This document shows positions 2,845 through 45,170 of a stretch of DNA of 64,000 nucleotides, one piece after another (position 1 is the first letter of the stretch; each line of letters begins with the position of its first letter). The stretch is from a virus. Location: IMG/VR virus record IMGVR_UViG_3300021964_007043, one strand, 5' to 3'. Under the pieces are notes generated by a model. The model saw only the letters and a program-made list of their open reading frames with translations. It made no database searches and was not told the origin of the DNA. Both the position numbers and the translations under genes were made by a program.

Positions 2845-2873
2845 TTGACAAAACCACCAATAAGTAGTATAAT
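2845..2873 (+). promoter_or_regulatory. Sigma70 consensus promoter, probably leaderless transcript
   Basis: TTGACA (2845-2850), N17, TATAAT (2868-2873). ATG is at 2879 with no SD. Confidence 0.8.
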
Positions 2874-6423: not shown

Positions 6424-6430
6424 GTACAGT

Positions 6431-16930: not shown

Positions 16931-18939
16931 TCTACTATATCGAGTTTATAGTTCATTAACTTTCTATTTTTTCCATAAACAAGACACATTGCATAATAAT
17001 ATCTATCCATTTTAACATTTAACTTTTTAAAATGTCGAATGTATGTGTTATTAAACTTTATTGTGTATTTTTTTGGTTTTGCAGAAATATAGTTTTTATC
17101 TTTTATTAACTTTTTCCAGTTATAGTTATATGTTTTTTGGAAATCTTCTACAGTGTCATATCCAACAATGTAATCCATGCTGAACTCAAAAAGTTCAGGT
17201 ATCATATCAAAATAGCCGAACTCGTCTTGTATTATTTTCGGCCATTTTTTTGATATATGTTCTTTATGTTCTGCTATCCAGCTTTGTATTACAACACTCA
17301 TATCAAACCCTATAGTATCGTTGTATCCTGTTATAGTCACTTCAGCATATTCTTTTTCTTTCATGCTAAACTTTAAAGTTTGATTAAAAATATCGTGATA
17401 TATTTCTGCAAAAAGTGGATCTTTTTCTACTAAAAGTTCAAGAAATCTGTGTATGAATGTTTTATATGAAACACCGTTTTCATTATAAAAATCGCTTAAA
17501 AACTTAAAAATACCTAGCTCAACTAATCCATTAAATATGTTTAACCAACTAAACATATTTGCCCATTCTCTTTCATCAAAACTATACGAACCTATAACCA
17601 GTTCGCTTTTGTCTTCCGTTTCACTCCATAAAGTATCAGCATATGCACTTTGATCATCGTGATCCATACCGTTGCAGGTAGCTAGATCGTAGCCGTTATA
17701 GCCTTGACCTGTTGTAATGTCTCTGCATATAACACCACTATATGCAGATGTAGTTTTAAACTGCATTTCTTTTCTGTATTTTGGATCTGCTGCTGGTGCA
17801 TTTGGAAATAAACCTAAAATAAAGTTTTCAACCTCATAGCTAACTCCCATTTCATAAAGGTAAGTTACACTATCTTTTAATGTTTTTATAGTGTCGCCTG
17901 GCAATCCTATAATAAGTTGACTTTTTACAGGAACACCTCTTTCATGTAACATCTCTGCAATCTTTTTTTGGCGTTCTGCTGGTAAGTTACTTCTTTTAAC
18001 ATTAGCAAGCACAGTTTCATCTGTGCTTTGCATACTCATCATATGTCCACTGCTAACTGTTCCTTTATAAAAAATATCAGCAATTTCTACGATCTGTTCT
18101 GTTTGATTTTTAGCAGTCTGATATAACACTCCTCTAGGATATCCGTATTCCTTTTTAGTATCGACAATAATCTTTGCTACTTCTATATCTCTTTTAAGTA
18201 TTCCAAAGTTTGCGTCAGTAATAAAATATTTCCAGATTTTATTTTGACCAGACCATTCAATCTCTTTTTGTAAAATATCTACAGGACGTTGCCTGATTTT
18301 TGTATGTATACCTCCGCCCCAGTCGCAATATGTACAGCTATAAGGACAGCCTCTAGTAGTTTCAAACTGAAGTAGTGTTTTTAATCCTAACGATGCGTTT
18401 TCTTCTACTACTTCAGACATATATTCTTTGTGGTCTAATAAAGGACTGTATTCCCAATCTCTGATCCACGGCAACGGAGGAGTTTTTATAACTTTATCCT
18501 TGCCACGGTACACTATACCTCCAACGTCTCTCCAATCTTGATTTTTTACAAATCTATCTAATAACGCACTGAATGTTGCTTCCCCTTCTATCGGAACATA
18601 TAAGTCAATAAGTTTTCCAAAGTTCTTTTTATTAGTTGTGTCAAACTCAGGACCGCCACATATTACAAAACAGTTAGGATTTCTTTTTTTAATTTCTTCT
18701 GTAAGATATGTATTAATCTTACTATTCCACATATAGTTGCTTAAACCTAAAACATCAACTTTTACGTTTGACTTTAAAAAGTTTTCAATATCTACACTGT
18801 TTTTTAAAGGAGGTAACCAGTTTATTTTTTCTGGATATTTTCCTTTATGATCATGATAACTTTTAAGACAAGCCCACACTAAAGGTAAGTACCTCATTCC
18901 ACTTAAAGGAAAGGTAGGAACACTAATAAGAACATTCAT
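16927..18939 (-). CDS. Cobalamin-binding (class B) radical SAM protein
   Basis: B12-domain motifs DVLGLSNYMWN and CGGP; ETTRGCPYSCTYCDWG; DANFG. Confidence 0.9.
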   Translation of the reverse strand: MNVLISVPTFPLSGMRYLPLVWACLKSYHDHKGKYPEKINWLPPLKNSVDIENFLKSNVKVDVLGLSNYMWNSKINTYLTEEIKKRNPNCFVICGGPEFDTTNKKNFGKLIDLYVPIEGEATFSALLDRFVKNQDWRDVGGIVYRGKDKVIKTPPLPWIRDWEYSPLLDHKEYMSEVVEENASLGLKTLLQFETTRGCPYSCTYCDWGGGIHTKIRQRPVDILQKEIEWSGQNKIWKYFITDANFGILKRDIEVAKIIVDTKKEYGYPRGVLYQTAKNQTEQIVEIADIFYKGTVSSGHMMSMQSTDETVLANVKRSNLPAERQKKIAEMLHERGVPVKSQLIIGLPGDTIKTLKDSVTYLYEMGVSYEVENFILGLFPNAPAADPKYRKEMQFKTTSAYSGVICRDITTGQGYNGYDLATCNGMDHDDQSAYADTLWSETEDKSELVIGSYSFDEREWANMFSWLNIFNGLVELGIFKFLSDFYNENGVSYKTFIHRFLELLVEKDPLFAEIYHDIFNQTLKFSMKEKEYAEVTITGYNDTIGFDMSVVIQSWIAEHKEHISKKWPKIIQDEFGYFDMIPELFEFSMDYIVGYDTVEDFQKTYNYNWKKLIKDKNYISAKPKKYTIKFNNTYIRHFKKLNVKMDRYYYAMCLVYGKNRKLMNYKLDIVD

Positions 18940-18978: not shown

Positions 18979-21048
18979 ATGAGCGTAAATGTATTGATCT
19001 CCCAGCCAAACCTTTATGACTCAAAAGTGTTTATGCCTTTGGTATTCCTCTGCCTTAAAACATATACTGATCTACAAGATGATATTGAACCGGTAAACTG
19101 GTTAGATCCTTTATTCCGGAATACTGATGTAGATACTATGTTAAATGGAGTAGACATTGAGTCGATAGATGTGCTAGGACTAAGTTGTTATGATTGGAAC
19201 TGGAGTCTTAACTTACAAATAGCAAAAAGGGTAAAGGATGCTAACCCTGGATGTTTAGTTGTAGCTGGAGGACCTCATCCCGATTGGAAAGATCAAAGTA
19301 TATTTTTAAAGCATCCTCAAATAGATGCTATTGTTTATAATGACGGCGAAAAACCGTTTGCAGATGTAATAAGATGTGTACAACAAGGAAAGTCATTAGA
19401 TACTGTAAATAATTTAATACTGCCTCATACAAAAACTCCTGCGAGTTCTTTATTTAAAGATTTTGAAGTTAGTCCTTGGCTACAAAATAAAGAATGGATC
19501 TTAAAGTTTAAAGAAAAATACATAGACAATGGCCTTAACAAACAGTTTACATTATTATGGGAAACTGATAGGGGATGTCCTTTTAAATGTAGTTTTTGTG
19601 ATTGGGGGAGTGCTACTAACAGTAAAGTAAGAAGATTTCCAGATGATAGAATAGCACAAGAAATAGATTTTTTTACAAACGATCTTAACGTCGATGTGTT
19701 GTATCACGTCGGAGCAAATCTAGGAATACTTCCTAGAGATTTAGATTTTGTTAGACATATATGTGAAAAGAAAAAAGAAACAGGGTATCCAAAAAGTTTT
19801 CAGTATAGTACAAGTAAAAATACACCCGAACGTACAGTTGAAATAGCAAAGTTACTATATGACGCAAAACTTTTAAAGAAGCATGTAGTTAGTTTACAGC
19901 ATACAGTACAAGATGTTTTAGATTGTATTGATCGTTATAATATCCCAGTTAAAAGACAGATACCGATGATACAAGAACTAAACAAAAATAAAATGCCTTG
20001 TATTAGTCAAATGATAATGGGAATGCCTGGCGATAGATATGAACTATGGATTAAAGCTCTTACAGATACTTTAGAATGGGGAATACATTATGAATGTAGG
20101 ATATATGATTTTCAGTTGTTACCTAACTCTCCAGCAGCACAACCTGATTATATGGAAAAATGGAATATAGGAACTAGAACCAGATACCATTTTATAAATG
20201 GATATCATAAAATGCTTGAACAATCGCATGCATTAGATCCCCATTCGACAGAGTTTATAGTTAGCACAAGTACATATACATTAGATGACTGGCTGGAAAT
20301 GAAAGTCTTTGGAAAAATTTTTATGGCTTTACATGGAGGAAGCATTTCGAAATGGGCAAGTATGTTTTGTAGAAATACCCTTGGAGTTTCTTACTACGAT
20401 TTTTATAAAGATATTTATGAAAACTTTTTTAAAAATAAAAAATACAAGTGTGCCTATTCTATTTTTGAAGAAGGATATTTACATTTTAAAAACTTTCTAC
20501 ACGATGACAGTGCAACAGATGAAATAAAAATACCTGCATTAAAGAATGGAAGATATTATCAACTAGAAGAATATGTTTTATGGAATTGTTTATACAACGA
20601 GGAATATAACTTGAATCAAGATTTTTGGAATGAGTTTGAAACATATATTTTAGAAACATATGAAGATCCGTTGTTAAAAGATTTAATAAACTTTAACAAA
20701 AATATGTTGCTTACATTAGACTATAACCATAGAAAAGGAAAAGAAATACTTTGCACTCACGATTGGTTTGAGTATTTAGAATATTGTACATGGAACTGTG
20801 CAGATAATACTGAAGAAGATTTTAATATTGAAGAAACACTAATACCAAAACCAAAAGAGTTTGATAGTCCTAAAGTCTGGCTTACAAAAGATTGTAAACT
20901 AGGTGCATTTCCAATGGGCCCAAATCAGGACACTACATGGTCAAATAAAGAAGGCGAAGAAAAAATAACAATGTTTGTAAACAGCATATTGGCACCAACA
21001 TATATGAGAGGAACAAGAACAGTGTTTAACAGGGGAAGCTATGTTTAA
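18979..21048 (+). CDS. Cobalamin-binding (class B) radical SAM protein
   Basis: DVLGLSCYDWN, AGGPH, ETDRGCPFKCSFCDWG. Confidence 0.9.
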   Translation: MSVNVLISQPNLYDSKVFMPLVFLCLKTYTDLQDDIEPVNWLDPLFRNTDVDTMLNGVDIESIDVLGLSCYDWNWSLNLQIAKRVKDANPGCLVVAGGPHPDWKDQSIFLKHPQIDAIVYNDGEKPFADVIRCVQQGKSLDTVNNLILPHTKTPASSLFKDFEVSPWLQNKEWILKFKEKYIDNGLNKQFTLLWETDRGCPFKCSFCDWGSATNSKVRRFPDDRIAQEIDFFTNDLNVDVLYHVGANLGILPRDLDFVRHICEKKKETGYPKSFQYSTSKNTPERTVEIAKLLYDAKLLKKHVVSLQHTVQDVLDCIDRYNIPVKRQIPMIQELNKNKMPCISQMIMGMPGDRYELWIKALTDTLEWGIHYECRIYDFQLLPNSPAAQPDYMEKWNIGTRTRYHFINGYHKMLEQSHALDPHSTEFIVSTSTYTLDDWLEMKVFGKIFMALHGGSISKWASMFCRNTLGVSYYDFYKDIYENFFKNKKYKCAYSIFEEGYLHFKNFLHDDSATDEIKIPALKNGRYYQLEEYVLWNCLYNEEYNLNQDFWNEFETYILETYEDPLLKDLINFNKNMLLTLDYNHRKGKEILCTHDWFEYLEYCTWNCADNTEEDFNIEETLIPKPKEFDSPKVWLTKDCKLGAFPMGPNQDTTWSNKEGEEKITMFVNSILAPTYMRGTRTVFNRGSYV

Positions 21049-21697
21049 TTGGAACAACTGCATTTTTTATAAAGAACCATTTAACTACATTGTCTGTGAT
21101 AACTTTTTACAAGATTATTCAGATGACTTGTTTCCTAATACAAAATGGACAGAAAAATACCTTAGTAAAAGAGAAAATGAAGTTACTAAAGGTATAAGTG
21201 CTATACACAGTCTAGACATTATAGAAGGAAAAACAAAAGATCTTCTAGAGTCTATTTTAAGTCAACAGTTTTTTGATCAAGTTTGCAAACTTTTAAAAAT
21301 ACCTTTATTAGGAGAAACTACAAATGTAAGAAGATCAAACGGTGAATATAGAATAGCAAGAGAAGCAATGTTTGTCGAAAACTACAAAACTAACGAAAAT
21401 ATCTTAGAACCTCACTACGATAGCGAAGTCACTATATGGACAGGATTGTTATATTTCGTAGATAGCCAATATGGAACCTTTAATATACACGATAGTAATA
21501 AAGACATTGTAAAAACTATAAATGTCAAACGTAACAGATTAATATTAACGGAAAATAGTAATAAGTCTTGGCACAGTGTAAGCCAATGGTTAGAAAACTA
21601 TCCTAGAAGAAGTATATATACTACAGCAGAATTTAAAAACTTTGGTAGAGACAAGGATAGAAAGCCTATAGGAGCAACAGAAACATGGATAAAGTAG
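21041..21697 (+). CDS. 2OG-Fe(II) oxygenase (prolyl-hydroxylase-like)
   Basis: EPHYD (HxD), WHSV, and the 2OG-binding R in PRRS. Confidence 0.75.
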   Translation: MFNWNNCIFYKEPFNYIVCDNFLQDYSDDLFPNTKWTEKYLSKRENEVTKGISAIHSLDIIEGKTKDLLESILSQQFFDQVCKLLKIPLLGETTNVRRSNGEYRIAREAMFVENYKTNENILEPHYDSEVTIWTGLLYFVDSQYGTFNIHDSNKDIVKTINVKRNRLILTENSNKSWHSVSQWLENYPRRSIYTTAEFKNFGRDKDRKPIGATETWIK

Positions 21698-23849: not shown

Positions 23850-25404
23850 AGTTACACATATACCTAAAAATCAAGATATAGTAATAGCTACTGTTCCTAG
23901 CATTGAGTTACGACCTCCTATTGGACCTGCACGTATAAAAGCATATCTTAATACAGTAAACTTAAAATGTTATAATATTGACCTAAACCTCGACTTGTGG
24001 CACAGGCTTCAAAAAGACAAAGAGTTTTTTCAAAGTGACGAAGACCGATTTTGGGAAGGCAGCGACAAATGGCAGTTATGGCAAGATAAAATGATGTTTG
24101 ATGATTTTTATGAAGTTACTCTTGGTAATATTGTAGAAGAATGGACTGATATTATTGTTGAAGCAAACCCAAAGTTTTTTGGTATTAGTGTACACTTTTT
24201 ACGAAGCCAGATGACAGCAAAAAGATTACTAGAAAGTTTGAAACGTAAAGCTCCTCATATACAAACTGTATTAGGTGGTAGCGCCGCAGAACATTTTGGC
24301 CTTGAACTTGGTTGGGATATTTTAGATTGGATTATTGTTGGAGAAGGCGAACGTGGCGTAGAAATGCTTATAAACAATGATATTAATCTTATACCTAACG
24401 GAGTATATAATAAACATACATATGACCCTAACTGGCAACTAGAAGCCCCCCGCACACCTAAAGTAGATATTACGGCAGTACCTTATCCAGACTATAGCGA
24501 TTTTATTTTTAATGCTTATCCTAAAGATGCATATGAAGTAGCAGAAGATACAATGGGAGTTGCTAGTTTGTTTATTGAAGGAACACGTAGTTGTGTTTTT
24601 GATTGTAAGTTTTGTAATGTAAGAGGTGAGTTTGGTGTATATAGAGCAAGAGACGGAAAAGCTATTGCTACAGAAATGATATATTATTATGAACAATACG
24701 GTGTATTAGATTTTGTATTTGTTGATAATATATTAAATGGTGTATTAAAAAATCTAAATGAAATGGTAGATGTATTACTAGAATACCAAAATATCCATAA
24801 TATAAAGTTTGCATGGACTGCTTATTTTGCTATTAGAGCTAAAAAACAAATGCCGCCGGAGATGTGGGATAAACTTAGAGCCAGCGGTTTACATCATATT
24901 AAACTAGGTATCGAAAGTGGTAGTACTGCTACGCTAAAAGAAATGGATAAAAAATATACCAAAGAAGATTTGTTGTATTGTATGGAGCAATGTCATAGAG
25001 TTGGTATTACTACAAGAAGTATGTATTTTGTAGGCTATCCTACAGAAAGCGAAGAAGAGTTTCAAGATACATTAGATACTATTGAAAAACTAAAACCTTA
25101 TGATGATATTTTAAAGCCGTTATATATAGGTGTATTGATGCGTGTTAAGCCTAATACAAGAGCCAAAGATGAATATGTTTCAAAAGGATATCTTAAAAAG
25201 GATCAAAGATTCCCCAAAGGTTGGCCTTTTAGAATGTATTGGATTTATGATGATGGTAAAGTTTATAATGATTTAGAAGTTCGTGTAAGAAGACACAAGC
25301 AACTTGCTTCGAGATGTAAAGAGTTAGGTTTTAAGTATTTCGACGATCCTATGCAGTTTGAACTACCAAAACTAGAAAAAGAAATAAAAACTTATATAAA
25401 ATGA
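23839..25404 (+). CDS. Cobalamin-binding radical SAM protein
   Basis: PPIGPARIKAYL, VLGG, EGTRSCVFDCKFC, GIESGS, FVGYPTE. Confidence 0.85.
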   Translation: MSYKVTHIPKNQDIVIATVPSIELRPPIGPARIKAYLNTVNLKCYNIDLNLDLWHRLQKDKEFFQSDEDRFWEGSDKWQLWQDKMMFDDFYEVTLGNIVEEWTDIIVEANPKFFGISVHFLRSQMTAKRLLESLKRKAPHIQTVLGGSAAEHFGLELGWDILDWIIVGEGERGVEMLINNDINLIPNGVYNKHTYDPNWQLEAPRTPKVDITAVPYPDYSDFIFNAYPKDAYEVAEDTMGVASLFIEGTRSCVFDCKFCNVRGEFGVYRARDGKAIATEMIYYYEQYGVLDFVFVDNILNGVLKNLNEMVDVLLEYQNIHNIKFAWTAYFAIRAKKQMPPEMWDKLRASGLHHIKLGIESGSTATLKEMDKKYTKEDLLYCMEQCHRVGITTRSMYFVGYPTESEEEFQDTLDTIEKLKPYDDILKPLYIGVLMRVKPNTRAKDEYVSKGYLKKDQRFPKGWPFRMYWIYDDGKVYNDLEVRVRRHKQLASRCKELGFKYFDDPMQFELPKLEKEIKTYIK

Positions 25405-25940
25405 TCTTTAAAGATTTCTAAAGCTCTGTCCCATTCTAATCTTTTATCTTTTCCTTTTTCTTTCATAAAGAATGCAAAAGTGTGTCGATCTGCAGGACTA
25501 TATACACTATGGATTATTCCAGTGTTAACAAGAACACCACTTTTTACATGTGCATGATCTATTACTCTAACTTTGTCTTTATTATATGAACGAACAGTTT
25601 CATTATTTTCGCTTACATAAAAATCAAAGTTATCCGGATCATTAGGATCTTTTAACTCGTACCAGGACATAATACTTCCAACGCCGTCAAAAATAAAGTT
25701 TAATCTGACATAGTTATTAGGATAATCCATAACATCTATATGTAACGGCAGTTCAAATCCTTTAGGTATGTAAAAATAACGAGAATATTTTATTTCTAGA
25801 TTAAACTGTTCAAGCCACTTTTTTAAATCTTCGTTATGTAGCTCTTTCGGAACCTTAAGTTCTCGGTAGGTGCTTCCGGTAAATCTTTCCCAAGGAGGCT
25901 CAAAGTTAAAAGGTATTCTCAGTTGCTTGTAAGTTTTCAT
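25392..25940 (-). CDS. Cupin-fold / 2OG-type oxygenase-like protein
   Basis: LPLHID and LVNTGIIHSV...RHTF. Confidence 0.55.
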   Translation of the reverse strand: MKTYKQLRIPFNFEPPWERFTGSTYRELKVPKELHNEDLKKWLEQFNLEIKYSRYFYIPKGFELPLHIDVMDYPNNYVRLNFIFDGVGSIMSWYELKDPNDPDNFDFYVSENNETVRSYNKDKVRVIDHAHVKSGVLVNTGIIHSVYSPADRHTFAFFMKEKGKDKRLEWDRALEIFKDHFI

Positions 25941-25948
25941 TGTAAAAA

Positions 25949-25956
25949 TATTTATA
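25949..25956 (-). promoter_or_regulatory. T4 late promoter consensus TATAAATA
   Basis: Exact TATAAATA overlapping the upstream stop, 8 nt before ATG 25940. Confidence 0.65.
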
Positions 25957-26569
25957 AAAAGTACGGGTTAAAATAACTAGTTACATCGTTCCAATCGAGG
26001 AACTTTAAGTCAAATCTAAAACTTAAACTCAATCTAAAGTTATCTTTCATAAAAACAGTATGAGGAATATCAGTTCTTACCAATGTAGGTGTAGTTCCTA
26101 TGGTACATCTTTCTCCTGCTTCGGTTAAAGTTTCAATAGGCCATTCGGCATATGCACTGCCAATCATACTATATTCAACTTGTTCTCTCCAATTTTCTGG
26201 AAGATTATACCAAGTCATTTCACTTTTATCTTCAGGGTCAATAGTCCAGTTTACTGCATAAATTCTATCATTATCTCCTGTGCTGTCGTTCAAATCTATA
26301 TGAGCACCCCAGTGTTGATAGTTTTCTTCTCGATAAAAAAATATTAAACTTCTAGGTTCTAACCCTATATCTTTCATGTATTGTAACCATTCTTTTGATA
26401 TAAGATCATTTTCTTTTTTAAGGTTATAAGGATATAAAGTAGGCTCTATAAACTCTCGTGTTTTTATTTTATGTAAAAACGAATCAAAATCAAAACTATC
26501 TTTAAAACAGTTTGTATCTAAATTTAATCTATAAAAGTTTTTAATCAATGCATTAGTTCCTTCAACCAC
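25952..26569 (-). CDS. Cupin-fold / 2OG-type oxygenase-like protein
   Basis: GAHID and LVRTDIPHTV...RLSL. Tandem paralog of 25392..25940. Confidence 0.55.
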   Translation of the reverse strand: MVEGTNALIKNFYRLNLDTNCFKDSFDFDSFLHKIKTREFIEPTLYPYNLKKENDLISKEWLQYMKDIGLEPRSLIFFYREENYQHWGAHIDLNDSTGDNDRIYAVNWTIDPEDKSEMTWYNLPENWREQVEYSMIGSAYAEWPIETLTEAGERCTIGTTPTLVRTDIPHTVFMKDNFRLSLSFRFDLKFLDWNDVTSYFNPYFL

Positions 26570-26952
26570 TCAAATCTTCCATCTGTAGGTTTGCCGTTTT
26601 CAAATCTCCAGTTATGGTTATTTGACATTTTTCTTAGTTTGCCTTGATTAAACCAACAGCTTAAAAACGTTGCTAGACTTTCTTGATCCCATCTAACAGT
26701 ATAAGGTTTCGGGCTCCATGCCCTGTAAATAATATCATCCATGATAATATTTTCGCAGTCTTTTAGTTCTTTTACAAAACACCCAAAGAAAACTACTTTA
26801 TAGTCTCCTTTATATTCTTTTGCTTCCTTAGCAGTTAGTACAATACAATCTATATTGTGTTGATAAACACTATTTAAAAATGATTGTTTTGCGCTGTTAC
26901 TTGCTACTACTACTAAGTTCTTAATGCTACACAGTTGGAATGCCAAGTCCAC
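26545..26952 (-). CDS. Hypothetical protein (start uncertain)
   Basis: Fills the operon gap between the PP-loop gene and the cupin gene. Only GTG/TTG starts are available. Confidence 0.55.
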   Translation of the reverse strand: MDLAFQLCSIKNLVVVASNSAKQSFLNSVYQHNIDCIVLTAKEAKEYKGDYKVVFFGCFVKELKDCENIIMDDIIYRAWSPKPYTVRWDQESLATFLSCWFNQGKLRKMSNNHNWRFENGKPTDGRFEWLKELMH

Positions 26953-27913: not shown

Positions 27914-28971
27914 AATTTGAAATCTTTAATGTCTAATACCTTTACAAAATCTTCAATCAGTATACGATATTTTTCTTGGAACTTAGATTGGAAATAAGGT
28001 TGCCAAAATCCCTCTTGTAGATGTGTTACATCATGTTGGACACGATAACATAAACGTTGTTTGGTATCTCCTAATCTTCGATGTAGTGTAATACTGTTAT
28101 CAAAAAACAAAAAGTCTCCTTCATTCTGGTACCAATGATCGTAAACATATTTTTCAACAAAAAGATTTTTATTGATTTCTGCAAACACTTTGTCGCTATC
28201 TTCTTTACTCATACCCTTAATGCTATATACAGTGTTTACACTATAATGCAATCCTTTAATACCACCTGGACTTTGTATTACTAAAGGTATTTCAATATCA
28301 TCTACAGGACACTGACTTGCTTTGCTTATTCTGTCCTGTTCTTCAATATATCCTGGATTAATGGCACCTTTAAGATATCTATGATGTATAATCATGTCGT
28401 CTAGCTCAGATCTAAAACTTTCACTTACGTTTTCATAGTAATCTACAGTTTGAACAAATCCTGTACTTGTTCCTTTAACACCCTCTTTAGCAAAAAGTGC
28501 AATGCCGGGTGTAAAAGCTAATGTTCCTGCTTCGTTACTGTGCCATAATAAATCACCTTCTGCAAACATACCAGTAGGATTTCCGATTTCGTCTTTTTTA
28601 CCGCTCACACGCATCATACTTCCTGATCGTGTAGGCTCTAGAACACGATCAATCGCTGCTAACAAATAATAATCATCTTCGCTAATATTAGGATCTTTTT
28701 CTCTTACTTTTTTCCATAGTTCATCGTAGTTTAAGTTATAGCGTTTAGCCATATCATATCTAACAATATCTCTATTGCCGCCAAACTTTCTAACCCATTT
28801 TTGTTGATCTTGATAATCTAAGTTAGTATTACGTATAATAACAACTAAGTTTTTTATATAAAGATCACCAATCTCCATCCATTCTTCATCTGTAATATGA
28901 TTAAAATCTACACCGTCTACAAATACTCCATAACTTCCTAATCCTGGTATTTTACTTACTTTCATATGCAT
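27910..28971 (-). CDS. TauD/TfdA-family dioxygenase
   Basis: LLWHSNE, TGFV, YDHWYQNEGDFLFFDNSITLHRR. Confidence 0.85.
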   Translation of the reverse strand: MHMKVSKIPGLGSYGVFVDGVDFNHITDEEWMEIGDLYIKNLVVIIRNTNLDYQDQQKWVRKFGGNRDIVRYDMAKRYNLNYDELWKKVREKDPNISEDDYYLLAAIDRVLEPTRSGSMMRVSGKKDEIGNPTGMFAEGDLLWHSNEAGTLAFTPGIALFAKEGVKGTSTGFVQTVDYYENVSESFRSELDDMIIHHRYLKGAINPGYIEEQDRISKASQCPVDDIEIPLVIQSPGGIKGLHYSVNTVYSIKGMSKEDSDKVFAEINKNLFVEKYVYDHWYQNEGDFLFFDNSITLHRRLGDTKQRLCYRVQHDVTHLQEGFWQPYFQSKFQEKYRILIEDFVKVLDIKDFKL

Positions 28972-29444
28972 TCTTCCTTGTGATCTAAATCTTTATAAAC
29001 ATAACAGTTAGGCCCGAACTCCATTCCTTCGTCAAAAAACTCACTAGTTTTTTTAAATCCTACCTTTTCGTATGCCGGCAACGCTTCTTTTCTAGGTATA
29101 CTCCAAATAGCTTTGCATTTTTCTTTTATTGCCTGACCGTGAAGTTCGCAGAACAAAACTCCGCTTACTCCTAGTTTTCTATATCGAGGATCTACCCAGA
29201 TGCCTCTACTCCTGTACAAATCGTCTGTTGTTCTATGACCGCTATTTACACCTACTATTTCTCCGACTACATTATATACTGCAAAAAATGTAGGAGAATA
29301 TTTTTTGTATATTTCCATATCAAATCCACCTTGATACATCATACTACTCATTGGTTTGATTTCACTGGTCCTATTAGGCCATAACTTTTCCTGCCAAAAA
29401 GGCAGTATAGTTTCAAAATCTACAACTCCGCTACGACCTTTCAT
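28962..29444 (-). CDS. GNAT-family acetyltransferase
   Basis: RGIWVDPRYRKLGVS (motif A), A..AYEKVGF (motif B). Start ATG 29444 overlaps the upstream TGA. Confidence 0.85.
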   Translation of the reverse strand: MKGRSGVVDFETILPFWQEKLWPNRTSEIKPMSSMMYQGGFDMEIYKKYSPTFFAVYNVVGEIVGVNSGHRTTDDLYRSRGIWVDPRYRKLGVSGVLFCELHGQAIKEKCKAIWSIPRKEALPAYEKVGFKKTSEFFDEGMEFGPNCYVYKDLDHKEECI

Positions 29445-30097
29445 TTTGCCTCCAGGTGCTTTATTGTACACTTATAGTTATTCTCGGTTAACGGTATGTT
29501 TAATACAAGTTGAACTGAATCGTCTACAAATGAAAACACACTATGTTCTTTTCTTGTGTTTATAAAGTAAGGTCTTCCAGGTTCTAAAGGAATAACACGA
29601 TCTTCGTATATAAACTTAAACTGGCCTTTATTGCAGTTATGACACATTGTAAGTATACGAAAACACGTTGCATTAAGTATTTTTCCGTCTCGATGAGGCG
29701 GGAAAAAACCGCCCTTATTTAGGCGTATAAAGTGTGAACGTCCAAGAGTATCAAATATATCTAAAAGCGGCTGTATGACGCTTATATTGCTTGCAACAGG
29801 TGTTTTTACGTTGATATTAACTTCGTTTATGTTTGTATTATTCTGTTTGTTATACTCGAACAAGCTATCTAAATCTGGAATGCCGCTAAGATTACCATCT
29901 AAACTTGTAACACTTAGTCCTTGTCTATTGTTAGGTTTTCTTGGGTTATATTGCTTCCAATCTTCAGAAAACTGGTTTAGTTCTTCTTTAAGTTTATTAA
30001 CATTAAGACAAAAGTCTAGAGGAACAATGTCCCCTAGACTTGCTAAATGCAATAACAGATTTGAATCTGTATTAGTCAATAGTTTTACCTTCGACAT
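29441..30097 (-). CDS. AspH-like Fe(II)/2OG oxygenase
   Basis: GRSHFIRLNKGGFFPPHRD and YFINTRKEHSVFS. Start placed at ATG 30097. Confidence 0.75.
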   Translation of the reverse strand: MSKVKLLTNTDSNLLLHLASLGDIVPLDFCLNVNKLKEELNQFSEDWKQYNPRKPNNRQGLSVTSLDGNLSGIPDLDSLFEYNKQNNTNINEVNINVKTPVASNISVIQPLLDIFDTLGRSHFIRLNKGGFFPPHRDGKILNATCFRILTMCHNCNKGQFKFIYEDRVIPLEPGRPYFINTRKEHSVFSFVDDSVQLVLNIPLTENNYKCTIKHLEAK

Positions 30098-31097
30098 ATG
30101 TTGCAGTCGACCATTCCATGTTATTCTTAGCAAAATCTGTCAAATATGTTAAGCGTTCTTTAGTAACATATTTGTATAATGAATCCATAATGATATTTGA
30201 CTCGTCACCGAAGTACATAGGATAGTCACCTAGTTTGCTAACAAGATAAGCACGACTTTCGTCATTGGCCATCATGCGTTCAAAAGCATTAATCACTTCT
30301 GCTGTATTAGCACCTGGATGCATAAACAAACCTTTTTGTAAACCATCTCTCCATACTGCTGCAAGAATATATGCTTCAAATACAGGACCCTTTGGCTCTT
30401 TACCAAACTCTTTAGTATATAGATCTACAGCCGTTGGAGTATCAGGCCAGTTGTAGTCTTGTACAAATCCATTGTCTGGTGTAAACATACCGTGATTGAA
30501 TAAACGAACTGCTTCGCCTTCTTCTACCATTGGAGCAGTATTTTTAATATGTCTGCTTGCTGGCTCACGGATATATTTAAAGTCTCCACGCAACCAAGCC
30601 TGTTGTGCTTCACCAGCACTCATTTTGCGAATAAAGTTAATGTTGTCCCAACCCTTTAGCATAGTCCATGCAAGTGTTTCTGGAACACAGCCAGAACAAT
30701 CTGCTAGATTTAAAGTTTCGTTTTTCCAATCCCAATCTGATGCAACTGTTGTTGTGATATTGTATGGTTGTACAAGTACCGGCTCCCAATCTTTGAAACT
30801 CCAGTTTACATCTTCAATCAACCATGCATTGGCATTACCACCATGTGCAAGTAGAATAGTTTTTGGATCGTCTTTGTACTTTGTGTTAAAAGTTTCAAGT
30901 CCTACATTTCCTTTACCGCCTTTGATGTTTTCAACAATAACTCGTTCACCGAGATATTTTTCAAGTTCAGCGGCTACAACATCTCCCCATATAGCGGTAC
31001 CTGTGCCTTTAGGACTTGGTACTACGAGTCTGTAATCAGCCATTGCAGTCCCCACGGTTAAGAAAAGTGTCATAATTGCAGTTAGAATATATTTCAT
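30072..31097 (-). CDS. tctC: Tripartite tricarboxylate transporter substrate-binding protein (TctC/Bug-like)
   Basis: Signal peptide, then LVVP..KGTGT...LEKYLGERVIVENIKGGKG..G. Adjacent to a tctA-like gene. Confidence 0.7.
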   Translation of the reverse strand: MKYILTAIMTLFLTVGTAMADYRLVVPSPKGTGTAIWGDVVAAELEKYLGERVIVENIKGGKGNVGLETFNTKYKDDPKTILLAHGGNANAWLIEDVNWSFKDWEPVLVQPYNITTTVASDWDWKNETLNLADCSGCVPETLAWTMLKGWDNINFIRKMSAGEAQQAWLRGDFKYIREPASRHIKNTAPMVEEGEAVRLFNHGMFTPDNGFVQDYNWPDTPTAVDLYTKEFGKEPKGPVFEAYILAAVWRDGLQKGLFMHPGANTAEVINAFERMMANDESRAYLVSKLGDYPMYFGDESNIIMDSLYKYVTKERLTYLTDFAKNNMEWSTATYVEGKTID

Positions 31098-31114
31098 GTG
31101 TTTTTTTCTCCTTT

Positions 31115-32536
31115 TTATTTTCTAACATATTTTACTCCAGCGTAAGCTATTAAAAGTGTTAGGAGAAACAAACTTAAGAAAATTGGTCTCTCCATTAAAC
31201 TAATAACATTATACAACGAAACCGTCTGTATTGTCAAGGCCTCAATCTTAGAAAATAAGATAAAAGCCAACAGCATCGCTGGTCTGTTTAGTTCAAATCG
31301 TTTGGAAAGTAGGCCAATCGTTGAACATACTGCCAATGTGGCAATATCATAGTATGTATGCGATACTTGATAACAAGCCCAACAAATAAGAACAAGTATC
31401 AAAGGCGCATAAATTTTTGTAGGAATTTTTAGTAGCAGTATAATCGGTTTGCTTAATGCTACGCATAGTAAGCCTACTAGTACAGTGCCACCTAAAAATC
31501 CCGTTGCAAGATATTTATAAAAGTCGGTATCTGACTGTATAGAAACTGAGCCTAAATCAAAGTGTAGCAGATAAAAAATGCTTAGTATTACAGCCGCAAA
31601 TGGTGTACCAGGAATACCAAACACAACAGTAGGTACAAAACTAGCCGCATGTACTGCATTGTTTGCACCCTCAGGACCAACTACTCCTGCAATATTACCA
31701 TATCCAAATTTTCTTTTTTGATAGGTAAATTTTGTTTGAGCATAACTTAACCAATCTGCAACTACACCATGCACTCCGGGAACTGCACCAACTATTGCTC
31801 CTATTATGCCTCCCTGCAAACTTACACGCCAGTATTTTCTCCAAGCACCTATTCCTAGTTTTACTTGTTGCCAACTAGGATTAAGTTTTTGCATTTTTGA
31901 CTTTGAAAAGAACATATAAAAAAGTTCTGGCACTGCAAATATTCCACTTGCAAAAATAAGAACACTGATGCCATCTTTTAGATATTCTGTGCCAAAAGTT
32001 AATCTTGGAGCATTGTTTTCATCTATACCAACATAACCAAAAACAAATCCTATTAGGATACTCACAATACCTAAACCTATCTTTCCTTTTACTAAAAAGA
32101 TCACACAGGTAAGTGCAAGTATGTTAAGCATCAATAGTTCAGGTATGCCAAACACAAGAAGTAATTTGCTATACAATGGCATGAATAGGAATACTATACT
32201 ACCAAACAACAAGCCACTAAATGTACTACTGGTAAAAGCTGCACTCAGAGCCATTGTAGCCTTGCCTTTTTGCGCCAGAGGATATCCGTCTACAATAGTT
32301 GCGGCGCTTGAACTTGACCCAGGTATGCCGAGTAAGATACTACTCCATGTATCACCTGTGGTACAGGCTGCTATCATTGCTGTATAAAATGCAACACCTA
32401 GATAAGGATTGTCATAGAACAATGGAAAGAAAGCATATGATGTTAGAAGTGCTGTGGTAGGACCTGCTGTTGGAATCACACCAAAAACCAATCCCCATAA
32501 TACTCCTAGAACAATAATAAGTAGAACTTCTAACAT
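31115..32536 (-). CDS. tctA: Tripartite tricarboxylate transporter permease TctA
   Basis: G.IP..G, SILLGIPG..SSAATIVDGYPLAQKG, GPEGANNA, P..FGIPG; multiple TM helices. Confidence 0.9.
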   Translation of the reverse strand: MLEVLLIIVLGVLWGLVFGVIPTAGPTTALLTSYAFFPLFYDNPYLGVAFYTAMIAACTTGDTWSSILLGIPGSSSSAATIVDGYPLAQKGKATMALSAAFTSSTFSGLLFGSIVFLFMPLYSKLLLVFGIPELLMLNILALTCVIFLVKGKIGLGIVSILIGFVFGYVGIDENNAPRLTFGTEYLKDGISVLIFASGIFAVPELFYMFFSKSKMQKLNPSWQQVKLGIGAWRKYWRVSLQGGIIGAIVGAVPGVHGVVADWLSYAQTKFTYQKRKFGYGNIAGVVGPEGANNAVHAASFVPTVVFGIPGTPFAAVILSIFYLLHFDLGSVSIQSDTDFYKYLATGFLGGTVLVGLLCVALSKPIILLLKIPTKIYAPLILVLICWACYQVSHTYYDIATLAVCSTIGLLSKRFELNRPAMLLAFILFSKIEALTIQTVSLYNVISLMERPIFLSLFLLTLLIAYAGVKYVRK

Positions 32537-32542
32537 ATTACT

Positions 32543-32571
32543 ATTATACTATAAAACTGAGGAAGTGTCAA
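32543..32571 (-). promoter_or_regulatory. Sigma70 consensus promoter of the tctA operon, probably leaderless
   Basis: TTGACA (32571-66), N17, TATAAT (32548-43). ATG at 32536. Confidence 0.8.
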
Positions 32572-33502
32572 ATATTTTTGTGTAATTAACAAATCCACAA
32601 AATCCATTCTTAACTAAACTAAACAACTCTCGAGGATAATGTTTATACATATTTTCCTCCATTTTATAATAAATTTCTAAATAAAAATCATCTGATGGAT
32701 GAAAATGATCTGTTTTTGATTTGAATATAAGTTCAGGCCATTCGCTGTTTTTTAAAGCAATAGTATTACACACTCCTTTGTTTTGTTTACCATAACTTAG
32801 CAAAGGGTGTGTTGCTTGACTTTTTATTAAAGGTAGGGTGCTATTAAAAAAAGTCCACATACCTTGTTTTCCTGTTTCTTCACCGTATAACCACCAAATC
32901 ATTTCTGTAGGAGGACACGGTATAACTACTTCTTTGTCCCAGTCTTCACCTATACAGTTTTCTATAGTTTTACGATATATCCAGCCATCTTTTTCAAGTT
33001 CGCCTAGTCCTCCTACAATAAACTGCTCATTTGGAATCTTATCAAACATACCCATGCTAATAAGGAACCCTCTACTCATATTACCTAGTTTTACACTGTA
33101 ATATTTCATTCGTTCTAAGCATTCGTCGTAGTCGGCTTCGAACCCAATCCAATCATAACCAAGATCATATGCTAGTTTCATACTTTTTTCTTTATAACTA
33201 GAATCAGCCCAAGGATAGTCTTCGTAATATATAGTAGCCTTTTTTCCGTTAGCATGAGCAGAACGTGCTACTATTTCACTATCACTTCCGCTTACAGGTA
33301 TTGCTAGATGTAGATCTGGAAGAAGAGATGCAGCACTGATGCATTCTTCTCTAAAGGATTTAGATTCAATAGAAATATTATTTAATATTTGATAATCAAA
33401 CTTTTCTAGTTTTTCTGATTTATCTAAAAAACTCTTAAAGTTTGCATATGGAACATTATTAACAGACCACCATATGTGTTCTGGAAGATTTACATATTTC
33501 AT
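32549..33502 (-). CDS. Adenine-nucleotide alpha-hydrolase/PP-loop-like protein (degenerate)
   Basis: LAIPVSGSDSEIVA resembles SGGxDS; IVGGLGE. Confidence 0.4.
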   Translation of the reverse strand: MKYVNLPEHIWWSVNNVPYANFKSFLDKSEKLEKFDYQILNNISIESKSFREECISAASLLPDLHLAIPVSGSDSEIVARSAHANGKKATIYYEDYPWADSSYKEKSMKLAYDLGYDWIGFEADYDECLERMKYYSVKLGNMSRGFLISMGMFDKIPNEQFIVGGLGELEKDGWIYRKTIENCIGEDWDKEVVIPCPPTEMIWWLYGEETGKQGMWTFFNSTLPLIKSQATHPLLSYGKQNKGVCNTIALKNSEWPELIFKSKTDHFHPSDDFYLEIYYKMEENMYKHYPRELFSLVKNGFCGFVNYTKIFDTSSVL

Positions 33503-33521: not shown

Positions 33522-34742
33522 TTAGGACATTGCGTTCCAAGCTGAACCGTCGTAATAAACAACATAACTTCCGCCCGAACCTTTTGCAGCAGGATCCCAA
33601 GTTGCTCTATCAGCAACAGCAATCATTCCTTCTGCAACGTCTGTTGGTTCTGCATCTAAAGGAGTTAACATTAACTGTGAAGCAGACCATGTGCCGTATT
33701 TGTTACCTTCATATGTAATACCGGCAGTTGCTGTGGCGTTTGGAACTTGAAGTTGAACTTTAGCTGGTATTAAACTATTTGCTGCTGAACCATCTGCAAT
33801 AAATTTAATAAATCCGCCGTCTGAAATGGTTGAACCATCGTAGCCTGAAGCTACAAACTCTAGTAATCTGTCACCGTTTTGATATGTTGCAGGAGCACTA
33901 GTTGTTCCTCTATATTTAACACTTCTAAAATCAGCAACATTATCACTTTCGTGATATGTTTCTATACTAAAAGCAATGCCACTAGTTCCATTTCTAGCTA
34001 TGCTTAAAGTATTATTTTTGAATGTTCCGTCGTAGTCTGTTCCGCCAATCTGTACAGTATTTCCGTCATTTGCAACAATACCCAAAGTATCACCTTGTAG
34101 GTGTAATCTAGATGCTCCTGCATCTATTTTACGAGAATTTATAAATCCTGTTGGTCCATCTACGATTAAACTTGAATCATCGCCGAATACAGACCCCGAA
34201 AGTTCTCCAAATACTGTACCATTAACATTACCTGAAAGATCTCCGTCTACATTACCAATATGTTGTCCGACTGTAGTGCCTTCGAGTCTTCCGAAGAATC
34301 GAGCAGATACTGCATCTACCATTATAGTAGAATCGTCTGCAAATACACTACCTACTAAATCACCGCTAAAGGTAGTATCTCCACCTCCTACATTGTTTGC
34401 AGGAACCCAAGAAGTAGTTGCTGCATCAAATGCAAGAACTTGTCCGTCTAGTACTCCGCTAACTTCTACGTCTGATAAATCACCTAATGGAAGCTCACCT
34501 GCTACCCAATCGCCTGTTGCACTATCGTAAACTAGAACGTCACCGTCTTGCGGTAATGCGGCATCAACGTCATCTAGTTGATTAAGTGTATCAACAACTT
34601 CTCCTGATATTCTAATACCACCTAATGTGGTTCCATCACCTACATATAGTTCTGTGGTGTCTGTAACATAGATTAACTCGCCCTCGCTCGGCGTTATAAG
34701 TTGTCGTTGTGCGTCTGTACCGCGTCTTAGACGTAAAGCCAT
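33522..34742 (-). CDS. Tail fibre / receptor-binding-like virion protein
   Basis: N-terminal MALRLRRGT...GEL.Y.TDT.ELYVGDG (Mtd_N/hyaluronidase-N-like). Tandem L..L.DV...DG.VL..D..T..W repeats and GSVF.DDS repeats. AGGAG RBS and late box upstream. Confidence 0.75.
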   Translation of the reverse strand: MALRLRRGTDAQRQLITPSEGELIYVTDTTELYVGDGTTLGGIRISGEVVDTLNQLDDVDAALPQDGDVLVYDSATGDWVAGELPLGDLSDVEVSGVLDGQVLAFDAATTSWVPANNVGGGDTTFSGDLVGSVFADDSTIMVDAVSARFFGRLEGTTVGQHIGNVDGDLSGNVNGTVFGELSGSVFGDDSSLIVDGPTGFINSRKIDAGASRLHLQGDTLGIVANDGNTVQIGGTDYDGTFKNNTLSIARNGTSGIAFSIETYHESDNVADFRSVKYRGTTSAPATYQNGDRLLEFVASGYDGSTISDGGFIKFIADGSAANSLIPAKVQLQVPNATATAGITYEGNKYGTWSASQLMLTPLDAEPTDVAEGMIAVADRATWDPAAKGSGGSYVVYYDGSAWNAMS

Positions 34743-37598: not shown

Positions 37599-37626
37599 AT
37601 TATACATTATTTACAGGATTTGTCAA
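37599..37626 (-). promoter_or_regulatory. Sigma70-type early promoter
   Basis: TTGACA (37626-21), N16, TATAAT (37604-599). Confidence 0.65.
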
Positions 37627-45141: not shown

Positions 45142-45170
45142 ATTATATGATATATTTAGGTTTTTGTCAA
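45142..45170 (-). promoter_or_regulatory. Composite sigma70 plus late promoter for folE-queE
   Basis: TTGACA, N17, TATAAT, with TAAATA (45158-53) inside the spacer. Confidence 0.7.

Follow-up and report, generated by a model that had tools for sequence, protein, structure and literature searches.

Cyanophage PstS is a virus-supplied, high-affinity periplasmic binding protein that raises nutrient uptake during infection. The locus analysed here differs from it in that the phage also brings the permease, which makes the module self-contained, and in that the transporter belongs to a secondary-transporter family and not to the ABC one. On marine viruses, tctA was reported as a putative auxiliary metabolic gene of SUP05 viral contigs (Roux et al. 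2014, PMC4164917; in PMC6359870). As here, the TctA domain was carried by uncultured marine viral contigs, and its role was stated to be unknown; the entry reads 'protein domain hit only' and comes with no partner binding protein, remark on TctB, distribution or genomic context.

TTT systems (TC 2.A.80) are known importers of citrate and dicarboxylates, in which TctA is marked by a duplicated G-Hy3-G-Hy3-G-Hy2-P-G-Hy-G motif in TM1 and TM7, the domain-1 signature P-F-x-A-G-G-x-x-D of TctC holds the waters binding the proximal carboxylate (in some Bug proteins a hydroxyl side chain can stand in) and TctB has no established role (PMC5812351). The phage locus resembles the canonical systems in its full-length Pfam TctA, the duplicated Gly/Pro motif and the adjacent gene for a Bug/TctC-fold protein with a signal peptide. 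It departs from them in gene order (tctA followed by tctC instead of tctC-B-A), in the lack of TctB, in being encoded by a virus and in a binding protein which is not seen by the Pfam TctC family and lacks the signature Asp. Stand-alone archaeal TctA homologues (Winnen et al. 2003, as described in PMC5812351) are likewise devoid of TctB, but in that description also of TctC, whereas the phage TctA was always paired with a TctC-fold protein. The locus probably encodes a working two-component TTT importer, acting without TctB and feeding the tailoring enzymes of the phage island.

Organization of the locus

The window (the whole 64-kb stretch of DNA analysed) comes from an uncultured estuarine giant phage. 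The phage origin proposed in the first-pass annotation was supported by a T4-type DNA polymerase (phrog_262, E 1.6e-199), 43-50% identical to the polymerases of jumbo myoviruses, its best cultured relatives; no tRNA genes were found in the 64-kb window. The TctA and TctC-type pair lies inside a variable enzyme island with an evident iron demand, as at least 10 radical SAM/SPASM enzymes and several Fe(II) oxygenases are encoded there. The following features were recognized, with all elements of the earlier annotation found where it had placed them, on the minus strand:

32549..33502, minus strand, upstream 317-aa protein with no family match, its stop codon lying in the promoter spacer
32543..32571, minus strand, predicted perfect sigma70-type promoter, TTGACA-17 nt-TATAAT, 12/12 consensus matches
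31115..32536, minus strand, tctA, 473-aa permease with about 11 hydrophobic segments by hydropathy, PF01970
31208..31237, minus strand, second perfect promoter-like site, ambiguous, within the tctA 3' end, some 110 nt upstream of the tctC ATG
30072..31097, minus strand, divergent tctC, 341-aa periplasmic solute-binding protein by fold, with a predicted signal peptide and an upstream Shine-Dalgarno sequence
30012..30041, minus strand, 12-bp hairpin with T-rich tail, 30 nt 3' of the tctC stop, inside the oxygenase ORF
29441..30133, minus strand, 2OG/Fe(II) oxygenase of the AspH-like or small beta-hydroxylase kind by family profile, likely start ATG 30097
28962..29471, minus strand, GNAT acetyltransferase, PF13508, PF00583 and PF13673
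27910..28971, minus strand, TauD/TfdA-family 2OG oxygenase, PF02668
26927..27913, minus strand, PP-loop ATP pyrophosphatase-like enzyme with an SGGKDS motif
26545..26952, minus strand, 135-aa protein with no family match, present in 8/9 close-clade loci
25392..26569, minus strand, two proteins of 205 and 182 aa with no family match, at the operon end

The close packing noted earlier was confirmed, the genes overlapping by 4-62 nt or being separated by 11-17 nt; the GNAT gene likely starts at ATG 29444 after GGAGG, giving an ATGA overlap with the oxygenase stop (29444-29441). The operon end is convergent with a radical SAM gene on the plus strand. The 205- and 182-aa proteins had no homologue in related loci, and the 317-aa upstream protein was syntenic in loci L001, L002 and L006.

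The gene identities proposed in the first-pass annotation all held, at different levels of similarity. For tctA, the match to PF01970 was full-length (E 2e-92, 310 bits, profile positions 1-423 of 423), and tctC was recovered by fold and a weak profile match despite no match in Pfam or NCBIfam. The GNAT protein matched its three Pfam families at E 2e-7 to 2e-6 and the TauD-like protein matched PF02668 at E 1.5e-17, while the PP-loop enzyme gave weak QueC, NAD-synthase and Asn-synthase matches (E 3e-3 to 6e-3). In the AspH-like oxygenase family H135, D137 and H185 were invariant, and its profile matched 'Beta-hydroxylase' chains in the PDB at E 2.7e-16 and proline hydroxylases at 6e-5 to 1e-3. 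The homologue at L016:3999-4619 matched PF05118 (E 2.6e-4); the window oxygenase alone gave no Pfam match. The two AspH-like proteins of the window did not match each other significantly in pairwise BLAST (E 0.22); the assignment was obtained with the family profile only.

Features of the permease and the binding protein

Both copies of the Gly/Pro motif were found in TctA. In an alignment of 17 sequences G11, G15, G19, P22 and G25 were invariant in the TM1 copy, which has T-A-G where G-Hy-G is expected, and G242/243, G246, G250, P253, G254 and G257 in the TM7 copy. The TctA clade was 43-47% identical to the TctA of TctB-less pairs in MAG contigs and 28-33% identical to canonical, TctB-adjacent TctA from the same MAG genomes, and by these sequence identities it is distinct from canonical TctA. 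No solved TctA structure was found.

The 341-aa protein is predicted to be a binding protein of the TctC/Bug fold, based on its modelled structure and on weak profile-level similarity to TTT binding proteins of known structure, with 14-20% identity to solved members. The Pfam TctC family (PF03401) matched none of the 18 family members even at E <= 10, and none of eight second-tier relatives; these are probably cellular, and one second-tier cluster is named TctC by JGI. In the ESM Atlas the protein falls into 100% viral clusters located next to bacterial clusters partly annotated with PF03401, which was present on 17% of members in one neighbouring cluster.

Among the features of the PF03401 family, the signal peptide was present. 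Lys2, a hydrophobic core and Ala-x-Ala before an invariant Asp-Tyr (Asp21-Tyr22 in the window protein) were found in 18/18 sequences, and residues 1-20 had low pLDDT in the structural model. The protein is thus predicted to carry a cleavable signal peptide for export to the periplasm. The domain-1 signature was only partly kept, reading P27-S-P-K-G31-T-G33-T-A35 in the window protein and P-Q-K-P-G-G-G-T-S in the distant clade; Pro and the first Gly are invariant and Asp is replaced by Ala or Ser. Because of this replacement the solute may not be a classical carboxylate, and the term carboxylate is used here with caution. Compared with the solved Bug receptors (BugD, BugE, Bug27, AdpC, MatC, TphC, TBP), the phage protein has a changed pincer-loop signature. 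A Cys-x-x-Cys (C134, C137) that hardly varies in the close clade is taken by homology to sit in the second ligand-binding loop; the distant clade lacks this motif and has an inserted Cys-containing loop.

Absence of TctB

As had been noted from the sequence, no tctB accompanies the pair. No TctB-like small ORF with at least three hydrophobic segments was found in the window neighbourhood of tctA/tctC, and no conserved small multi-TM ORF near the pair among 111 related loci. The first-pass annotation had suggested looking for tctB elsewhere in the genome; related viruses were searched in its place, and none of five records, one of them a 359-kb relative 94% complete, matched PF07331 (TctB). TctB could be missed because it is poorly conserved, yet no candidate small membrane ORF appeared. 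One member of the TctA clade is probably cellular, and canonical TctB systems are present at other places in its genome. As a control for the PF07331 search, TctB was found elsewhere in the bacterial genome holding L031, which combines a TctB-less pair with three canonical TctB genes on other contigs.

A host TctB might be borrowed, making the system tripartite in practice, with phage TctA and TctC re-aiming a host TTT at a new solute. Such co-existence of the pair and canonical TctB genes in the L031 genome and the essential role of the small subunit in the analogous TRAP family (PMC5812351) are in favour of this reading, but it seems unlikely. The 28-33% identity of the TctA clade to TctB-paired canonical TctA is low, the pair is spread over very diverse phages and a foreign TctA fitting many host TctB proteins is improbable because TctB is the least conserved subunit; moreover, the archaeal homologues mentioned above occur without TctB (Winnen et al. 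2003, as described in PMC5812351). A two-component importer remains the preferred reading.

Predicted promoters and a conserved hairpin

The perfect sigma70 promoter previously proposed before tctA stood up to analysis as a predicted host-type site with all 12 consensus positions and 17-nt spacing. The window contained six perfect sigma70 sites compared with 0.10 expected from shuffles, all oriented with their downstream gene, and an 11/12 site was present at the same place in L001 and L002, 5 nt before the tctA ATG. In the window, the -10 box ends 6 nt ahead of the tctA start codon, and the upstream gene runs into the promoter, with its stop codon in the spacer, which suggests that the transcript is leaderless or that tctA is also read through from upstream.

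The two hexamers of the second site fall on Leu-Thr and Tyr-Asn codons within a peptide conserved in TctA, so that coding constraint may explain the site. It was kept at 11/12 or better in 9/90 unique loci, compared with 2/356 control windows. Its role as a device for over-expressing the binding protein was considered and dropped on account of the conserved-peptide codons and its retention in these nine loci only. The 12-bp hairpin after tctC was kept in seven close-clade loci with one-sided, pair-preserving changes and also encodes a conserved peptide; it is a possible attenuator or mRNA-stability element.

Distribution of the pair and its enzyme neighbours

Relatives of this TctA are encoded on at least 421 contigs of IMG/VR. 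The TctC-like gene was present in 80/80 examined TctA loci, directly downstream in 77, and tctA and tctC were adjacent in all 25 loci found via TctC. Both genes are under purifying selection, with dN/dS of 0.05-0.17 (0.08-0.17 for tctA); in the unsaturated pair L001/L002 the values were 0.13 and 0.095. The genes lie in a phage genome, are conserved among phages and are under purifying selection, as is required of phage auxiliary metabolic genes. A tblastn search with TctA and TctC against 50,697 GenBank phage records gave no true phage relative, the six TctA matches (25-33% identity) being located on host-like or unannotated fragments. Six loci were found in a scan of genome contigs; two of them, binned in 'Rickettsiales' and 'Verrucomicrobiales' MAGs, are uninformative on the host because they are identical to IMG/VR viral records.

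The pair was always placed inside enzyme-rich variable islands, the partners of which differed between clades. An AspH-like 2OG oxygenase was encoded within 1.5 kb downstream of tctC in 7/8 close-clade and 23/74 distant-clade loci, and anywhere in the locus in 45/82, the loci without it being mostly covered by a 4-kb flank only. The first-pass annotation had named occurrence of tctAC independently of the oxygenase islands as evidence against its reading; no oxygenase was encoded nearby in roughly half of the loci examined, and the recurrent neighbour among the oxygenases was the AspH-like enzyme. The wider enzyme set listed with it was more local: no homologue of the TauD-like protein was found in 90 unique related loci, and GNAT and the PP-loop enzyme accompanied tctAC in 7-8/9 close-clade unique loci (8/9 for the PP-loop enzyme) and in 0/81 distant ones. 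Distant-clade neighbours included a sulfotransferase-like protein, AMP-ligases, a halogenase, a carbamoyltransferase, methyltransferases and radical SAM enzymes. The commonest partner outside the window was the small sulfotransferase-like protein. A partner of about 195 aa directly followed tctC in 37/84 loci and also stood beside tctC in a probably cellular locus; its family gave no match to the PDB in a sequence search and a weak one by Foldseek (E 0.04). Given these differences in enzyme neighbours from clade to clade, one pathway common to all is unlikely, and the recurrence of the pair in hundreds of viral contigs with variable enzyme islands makes it look like a conserved viral uptake module.

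Such a module could be a general, PstS-like auxiliary pair scavenging carbon, nitrogen or sulfur, with the island being simply the cargo-accepting region of the phage. The pair is retained while its neighbours change, it occupies the same backbone position by AAA/DUF2201/Mtd_N genes in either orientation, and it appears to have its own promoters and a conserved hairpin after tctC. However, the overlapping genes suggest that the close-clade pair is translationally coupled to the downstream enzymes, and the placement of the ~195-aa partner directly after tctC speaks for a functional connection with one or more enzymes, so that this explanation was regarded as doubtful compared with an importer serving the island.

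The first-pass annotation had proposed the import of 2-oxoglutarate or citrate, supplying co-substrate for the 2OG oxygenases and carbon for acetyl-CoA use. This part of its importer reading did not survive, whereas the TctA/TctC pair without TctB, the predicted host-type promoter and the enzyme neighbours did. The occurrence of two 2OG oxygenases and GNAT in one operon, the recurrence of AspH-like neighbours, the solutes of known TTT systems and the fusion, in some bacteria, of a PrpF-family (aconitate-isomerase-type) domain with one that is TctC-like and belongs to the wider family (P0300/P0326) are compatible with such supply. Nothing, however, points to either compound: the binding protein lacks the carboxylate-pincer Asp, roughly half of the loci have no such oxygenase in the examined flanks, the TauD-like enzyme is unique to the window and the commonest partner elsewhere is sulfotransferase-like. 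2-Oxoglutarate is, moreover, abundant inside cells and scarce in sea water, and its import, like that of citrate, appears quite improbable. Import of a metal-carboxylate chelate (e.g., iron or another metal with citrate) for the metal-hungry island is very improbable. The iron need of its radical SAM/SPASM enzymes and Fe(II) oxygenases, the near-invariant close-clade Cys-x-x-Cys in the presumed ligand loop and the binding of citrate chelated with Zn or Ni by Bordetella BctC (reported in a 2026 preprint) would agree with it, but the distant clade lacks these cysteines, and they may do no more than form a disulfide.

Proposed function

In the preferred reading, a two-component importer feeding the island, host sigma70 RNA polymerase would transcribe tctA and tctC from the consensus promoters, presumably early in infection. 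The signal peptide would be cleaved and the binding protein exported to the periplasm of a Gram-negative host, where it would bind a small solute from outside the cell, most probably an organic anion, and hand it to TctA, which would carry it inward using an ion gradient, with no need for TctB. The two genes would form the constant core of a hypervariable island, the remainder being tailoring enzymes in varying combinations (oxygenases, an acyltransferase, amidoligase-like PP-loop enzymes and radical SAM enzymes, with a sulfotransferase-like protein, ligases, a halogenase and a carbamoyltransferase added in relatives). The imported molecule would most likely serve as feedstock of these enzymes, and a pathway precursor for the island is our best guess.

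More tentatively, the locus may be the type example of a largely virus-borne, TctB-less TTT branch that acts as the intake port of phage 'import-and-tailor' islands, in which a specific molecule from the surrounding water, or a metal chelate for the iron-rich enzymes, would be imported and modified by interchangeable enzymes (hydroxylases, a sulfotransferase-like protein, acyl- and amido-transferases, radical SAM enzymes), its product serving infection. If true, this would be a new category of phage metabolism, unlike the boosting of host central pathways. A self-contained, binding-protein-dependent importer on hundreds of viral contigs would itself count as an auxiliary function of a new type, with the virus bringing the whole uptake system and not the binding protein alone. 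TTT transporters are poorly understood, and a natural clade kept by purifying selection without TctB in cis offers a direct test of the need for this subunit. As the importer is the one constant gene pair in fast-changing islands, the identity of the solute is probably the shortest route to island function and would help to tell what giant phages of marine and estuarine waters produce or use up with their large radical SAM/oxygenase islands.

Occurrence in metatranscriptomes

Contigs 90-99% identical to tctC and tctA were found in four metatranscriptome libraries from four studies. They span positions 30065-32486 with no flank covered (four runs), many coming from relatives 90-95% identical, and, being assembled contigs, they may stem from DNA carry-over and cannot show absence. 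Each of the four libraries contained contigs bridging the tctA/tctC junction.

A phage-borne operon headed by tctA and tctC

The locus is best seen as a two-gene variant of the tripartite tricarboxylate transporter (TTT) importer that lacks TctB and is carried by a virus. The pair opens an operon with the following features:

32571-32543, minus strand, promoter, exact TTGACA-17 nt-TATAAT
32536-31115, minus strand, tctA (PF01970, E 2e-92, full profile length; unambiguous)
31097-30072, minus strand, secreted 341-aa TctC-like protein (predicted TctC fold, signal peptide)
30133 (or 30097)-29441, minus strand, 2OG oxygenase (family profile against solved chains)
29444-28962, minus strand, GNAT (passes Pfam threshold)
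28971-27910, minus strand, TauD-like oxygenase (passes Pfam threshold)
27913-26927, minus strand, PP-loop enzyme (weak assignment)
down to 25392, minus strand, three proteins without assignment (135, 205 and 182 aa), operon end

Neighbouring genes overlap by 4-62 nt or are separated by 11-17 nt. The oxygenase stop codon and the GNAT start codon have ATGA in common, preceded by GGAGG, and the last gene of the operon runs into the end of a radical SAM gene convergent with it. The first-pass annotation had listed tctA, tctC, an AspH-like oxygenase, GNAT, TauD-like, PP-loop and unknown genes, tightly packed behind a perfect sigma70 promoter and with no tctB. Pfam, fold and profile searches, the junctions and the exact promoter match bore out this description, with the PP-loop assignment being weak.

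The oxygenase alone gave no Pfam match. A profile of this protein and seven homologues matched solved chains named 'Beta-hydroxylase' (E 2.7e-16) and proline hydroxylases (6e-5 and 1e-3), and the His-x-Asp...His triad (H135, D137 and H185) was invariant in the family. A 12-bp hairpin with a T-rich tail (30012-30041, minus strand) starts 30 nt past the tctC stop codon, within the oxygenase ORF and on codons for a conserved peptide. It is kept in seven close-clade loci, with one-sided, pair-preserving changes, and may serve as an attenuator or stabilise the tctAC mRNA.

The gene content identifies the window as phage DNA. Among its products are a T4-type family B DNA polymerase (phrog_262, E 1.6e-199), an exonuclease and a MoxR/CobS-like AAA ATPase, whose gene adjoins that of a DUF2201 metallopeptidase/VWA protein. 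In cultured phages, the nearest matches to the polymerase (43-50% identity) come from jumbo myoviruses with genomes of 350-490 kb (Phosso, Atu_ph07 and PBECO4-like phages). The TctC-like protein of the window itself was recorded on a 343-kb contig in a protein collection, and DNA near-identical to the window came mainly from estuary metagenomes. Genes on the minus strand span 25392 to about 63800, and a plus-strand block occupies 2879-25404. A 406-aa protein, probably a fibre or receptor-binding protein, is encoded two genes upstream of tctA (33522-34742, minus strand); its N-terminal domain matches Mtd_N (major tropism determinant; E 1.5e-10).

The TctC-like protein and its binding pocket

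The 341-aa protein had no Pfam or NCBIfam match, and none of 18 family members matched PF03401, even at E <= 10. The family profile matched solved TTT binding proteins nearly exclusively, weakly and over the N-terminal 90 residues (E 3.5e-4 to 2e-3). The decisive support for its identity is structural and comes from a predicted model. The AlphaFold model, built with 15 homologues, had a mean pLDDT of 89.8 and a pTM of 0.87, and its top 17 Foldseek matches were all TTT binding proteins (E 9e-12 to 6e-8), with MatC, Bug27, BugD, BugE, Polaromonas TctC, the terephthalate binders TBP and TphC, and AdpC among the matches. Together with the gene adjoining tctA, this indicates a protein with the TctC fold next to TctA. 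Its signal peptide is typical and ends in Ala-x-Ala followed by an invariant Asp-Tyr, and no lipobox Cys was found in the protein. Together, these features imply that the protein is soluble in the periplasm and that the host is Gram-negative.

The binding pocket is best described as atypical for TTT binding proteins. The P-F-x-A-G-G-x-x-D motif of the family positions the waters that hold the proximal carboxylate of the ligand (PMC5812351). The corresponding signature reads P-S-P-K-G-T-G-T-A in the window and P-Q-K-P-G-G-G-T-S in the distant clade, so that Pro and the leading Gly are kept throughout and the Asp is lost in both clades. A Cys-x-x-Cys (C134, C137), nearly invariant in the close clade, is replaced in the distant clade by an inserted loop with two other Cys. 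From its position, we take it to be in the putative second pincer (ligand-binding) loop, where the two cysteines could form a disulfide or a metal contact. Given the altered signature and the Cys-x-x-Cys, the ligand may differ from the classical mono- to tricarboxylates. A 768-aa bacterial protein (P0300/P0326 in the representative-protein profile search) combines a PrpF-family (aconitate-isomerase-type) domain (E 1.5e-84) with a TctC-like domain of the wider family; this fusion occurs on 16 contigs, the longest of 453 kb. It is a weak hint at tricarboxylates and could point to the ligand class or to a cytoplasmic use of the binding domain.

Absence of TctB

TTT systems are described as consisting of TctA, TctB and TctC, of which TctB is poorly conserved and has no known role; fusions of TctA and TctB are rare, and archaeal TctA occurs with neither TctB nor TctC (PMC5812351). 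The phage TctA likewise lacks TctB but is paired with a TctC-like protein. No TctA structure was found among the PDB entries searched.

Outside tctA, ORFs of at least 40 aa in the window had at most two hydrophobic segments, bar one shadow ORF that lies 29 kb away and runs opposite a 518-aa gene. Among 111 related loci, 13 had a small ORF with at least three hydrophobic segments, none of them conserved or adjoining the pair. Five related viral records, one of them of 359 kb and rated 94% complete, contained no match to PF07331 (TctB) at E <= 1. The same search of the bacterial genome holding L031, one of the related loci, detected three TctB genes above threshold, on contigs other than that of the TctA/TctC-like pair. 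A TctAB fusion was ruled out, since the phage TctA, with 473 aa, is shorter than the usual ~500. It is 43-47% identical to TctA of TctB-less pairs in MAG contigs and 28-33% identical to the canonical, TctB-adjacent TctA of those same genomes. Taken with the negative searches, these identities mark the lack of TctB as characteristic of a separate TctA/TctC clade and not an accident of the window.

Distribution of the pair

The TctC-like family comprised 50 clusters at 90% identity in a first search, all unnamed. Its profile, run against 1.84 billion representatives, retrieved 1,238 clusters at E <= 1e-3, of which 381 reached E <= 1e-10. In IMG/VR, 25 contigs were found via TctC and 421 via TctA. 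Both genes were present in all of the best 80 of the 421, with tctC directly after tctA in 77, and in the 25 found via TctC the two genes were adjacent wherever the contig extent permitted. The close clade shares 65-83% (TctC) and 64-85% (TctA) identity with the window, the distant clade ~32% and ~45%. The dN/dS values were 0.08-0.17 for tctA and 0.05-0.16 for tctC; the unsaturated pair of related loci L001/L002 gave 0.13 and 0.095. Some loci carry a T4 RegA translational regulator directly upstream of tctA (L075:3528-3938; PF01818, E 4.7e-41), which places the module also in ordinary T4-like phages, besides giant ones.

A search of 185,579 species genomes with the TctC-like profile gave six loci. 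Two of them lie on contigs that are also viral in IMG/VR and were binned into unrelated MAGs. L026 is on the contig of L007 (NZHE01000012.1) and L027 on that of L008 (NYWG01000075.1), in GenBank MAGs labelled 'Rickettsiales' and 'Verrucomicrobiales', with lengths equal to those of the IMG/VR viral contigs and coordinates consistent with them; both are probably phage contigs that ended up in bacterial bins and are therefore not host evidence. Three are on short or low-GC contigs of uncertain nature. L031 (GC 0.49), with YcaO, a nucleotide cyclase and an Fe-S/CCG protein among its neighbours, looks cellular. In the ESM Atlas the binding protein occurred in 100% viral clusters, and bacterial clusters, partly with PF03401, stood lower in the list.

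On SUP05 viral contigs, tctA was reported as a 'protein domain hit only' with its role stated as unknown (PMC4164917), which a review repeats (PMC6359870). In the literature searched, which did not cover subscription journals, we found no other mention of a viral tctA and nothing on the binding protein that accompanies it, on the missing TctB or on an occurrence in hundreds of viral contigs.

Promoters and transcription

Six exact TTGACA-N16-18-TATAAT sites were detected in the window, against 0.10 expected from shuffles:

2845-2873, plus strand
31208-31237, minus strand
32543-32571, minus strand
37599-37626, minus strand
45142-45170, minus strand
53561-53589, minus strand

Given this excess and the orientation of each site toward the gene downstream, strong host-type promoters are a real feature of this phage, and the pair is probably expressed from them. 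The -10 box of the tctA promoter ends 6 nt from the ATG, the spacer contains the stop codon of the gene upstream, and no Shine-Dalgarno sequence was found ahead of tctA. A site matching 11/12 positions is at the same place in L001 and L002, 5 nt ahead of their ATG. The tctA start cannot shift downstream, because the invariant motif of TM1 starts at residue 11 and the match to the Pfam model at residue 5; a transcript from this promoter would thus be leaderless, the alternative being read-through from upstream. The -10 box ends just 5-6 nt from the ATG at two promoters (genes starting at 2879 and 32536), a spacing that suggests leaderless early transcripts in this phage.

The site at 31237-31208 lies within the tctA 3' end, 110 nt upstream of the tctC ATG. 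Its promoter role is ambiguous: the hexamers double as Leu-Thr and Tyr-Asn codons in a conserved stretch of TctA, and a site of at least 11/12 occurred at this position in only 9 of 90 unique loci (2 of 356 control windows).

Contigs 90-99% identical to the tctC-tctA stretch (30065-32486) were present in four metatranscriptome libraries from four studies, each with a contig bridging the tctA/tctC junction (e.g., 1,437 nt covering 30206-31642). These assembled contigs, which show no transcript ends or levels, are compatible with tctAC transcription and also with DNA carry-over.

Genomic context and role of the pair

In the window, L001 and L002, the AAA and DUF2201 genes, two small genes, the Mtd_N fibre-like gene, a 317-aa gene and then the pair follow one another in a single orientation. 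Ten distant-clade loci have these backbone genes as well, there convergent with the pair. At its fixed hypervariable site, the pair has undergone at least one inversion.

Around the unchanging transporter pair, the chemistry varies. In nine unique close-clade loci, the neighbours were PP-loop (8), the 135-aa protein (8), GNAT (7) and the oxygenase (7); the TauD-like gene was confined to the window. GNAT, PP-loop and the 135-aa protein were absent from 81 unique distant-clade loci, mostly with just 4 kb of flank. An AspH-like oxygenase was located within 1.5 kb after tctC in 23 of 74 of these loci and anywhere in the locus in 37. Further distant-clade neighbours were AMP-ligases, a tryptophan-halogenase-like enzyme, a nitroreductase, radical SAM and SPASM enzymes, a carbamoyltransferase and methyltransferases, among others. 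The first-pass interpretation finds support in part.

Because the pair stays constant while the neighbouring chemistry changes, two readings are favoured, namely an intake port for a variable tailoring island or an independent uptake gene parked in a cargo region. The part of the first-pass proposal in which tctAC imports 2-oxoglutarate or citrate as a dedicated supply for the oxygenases and acetyl-CoA use of the island fits less well, as recurring oxygenase neighbours speak for it but the partners vary between clades.

A dense block on the plus strand (5347-25404; one minus-strand gene, 16927-18939) holds at least 10 radical SAM genes. Four paralogues at 6383-12471 have the SPASM domain N-terminal to the radical SAM domain, and four radical SAM enzymes of the block are B12-binding. 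More AspH-like and 2OG oxygenases are encoded there at 12468-14375, 16211-16930 and 21041-21697.
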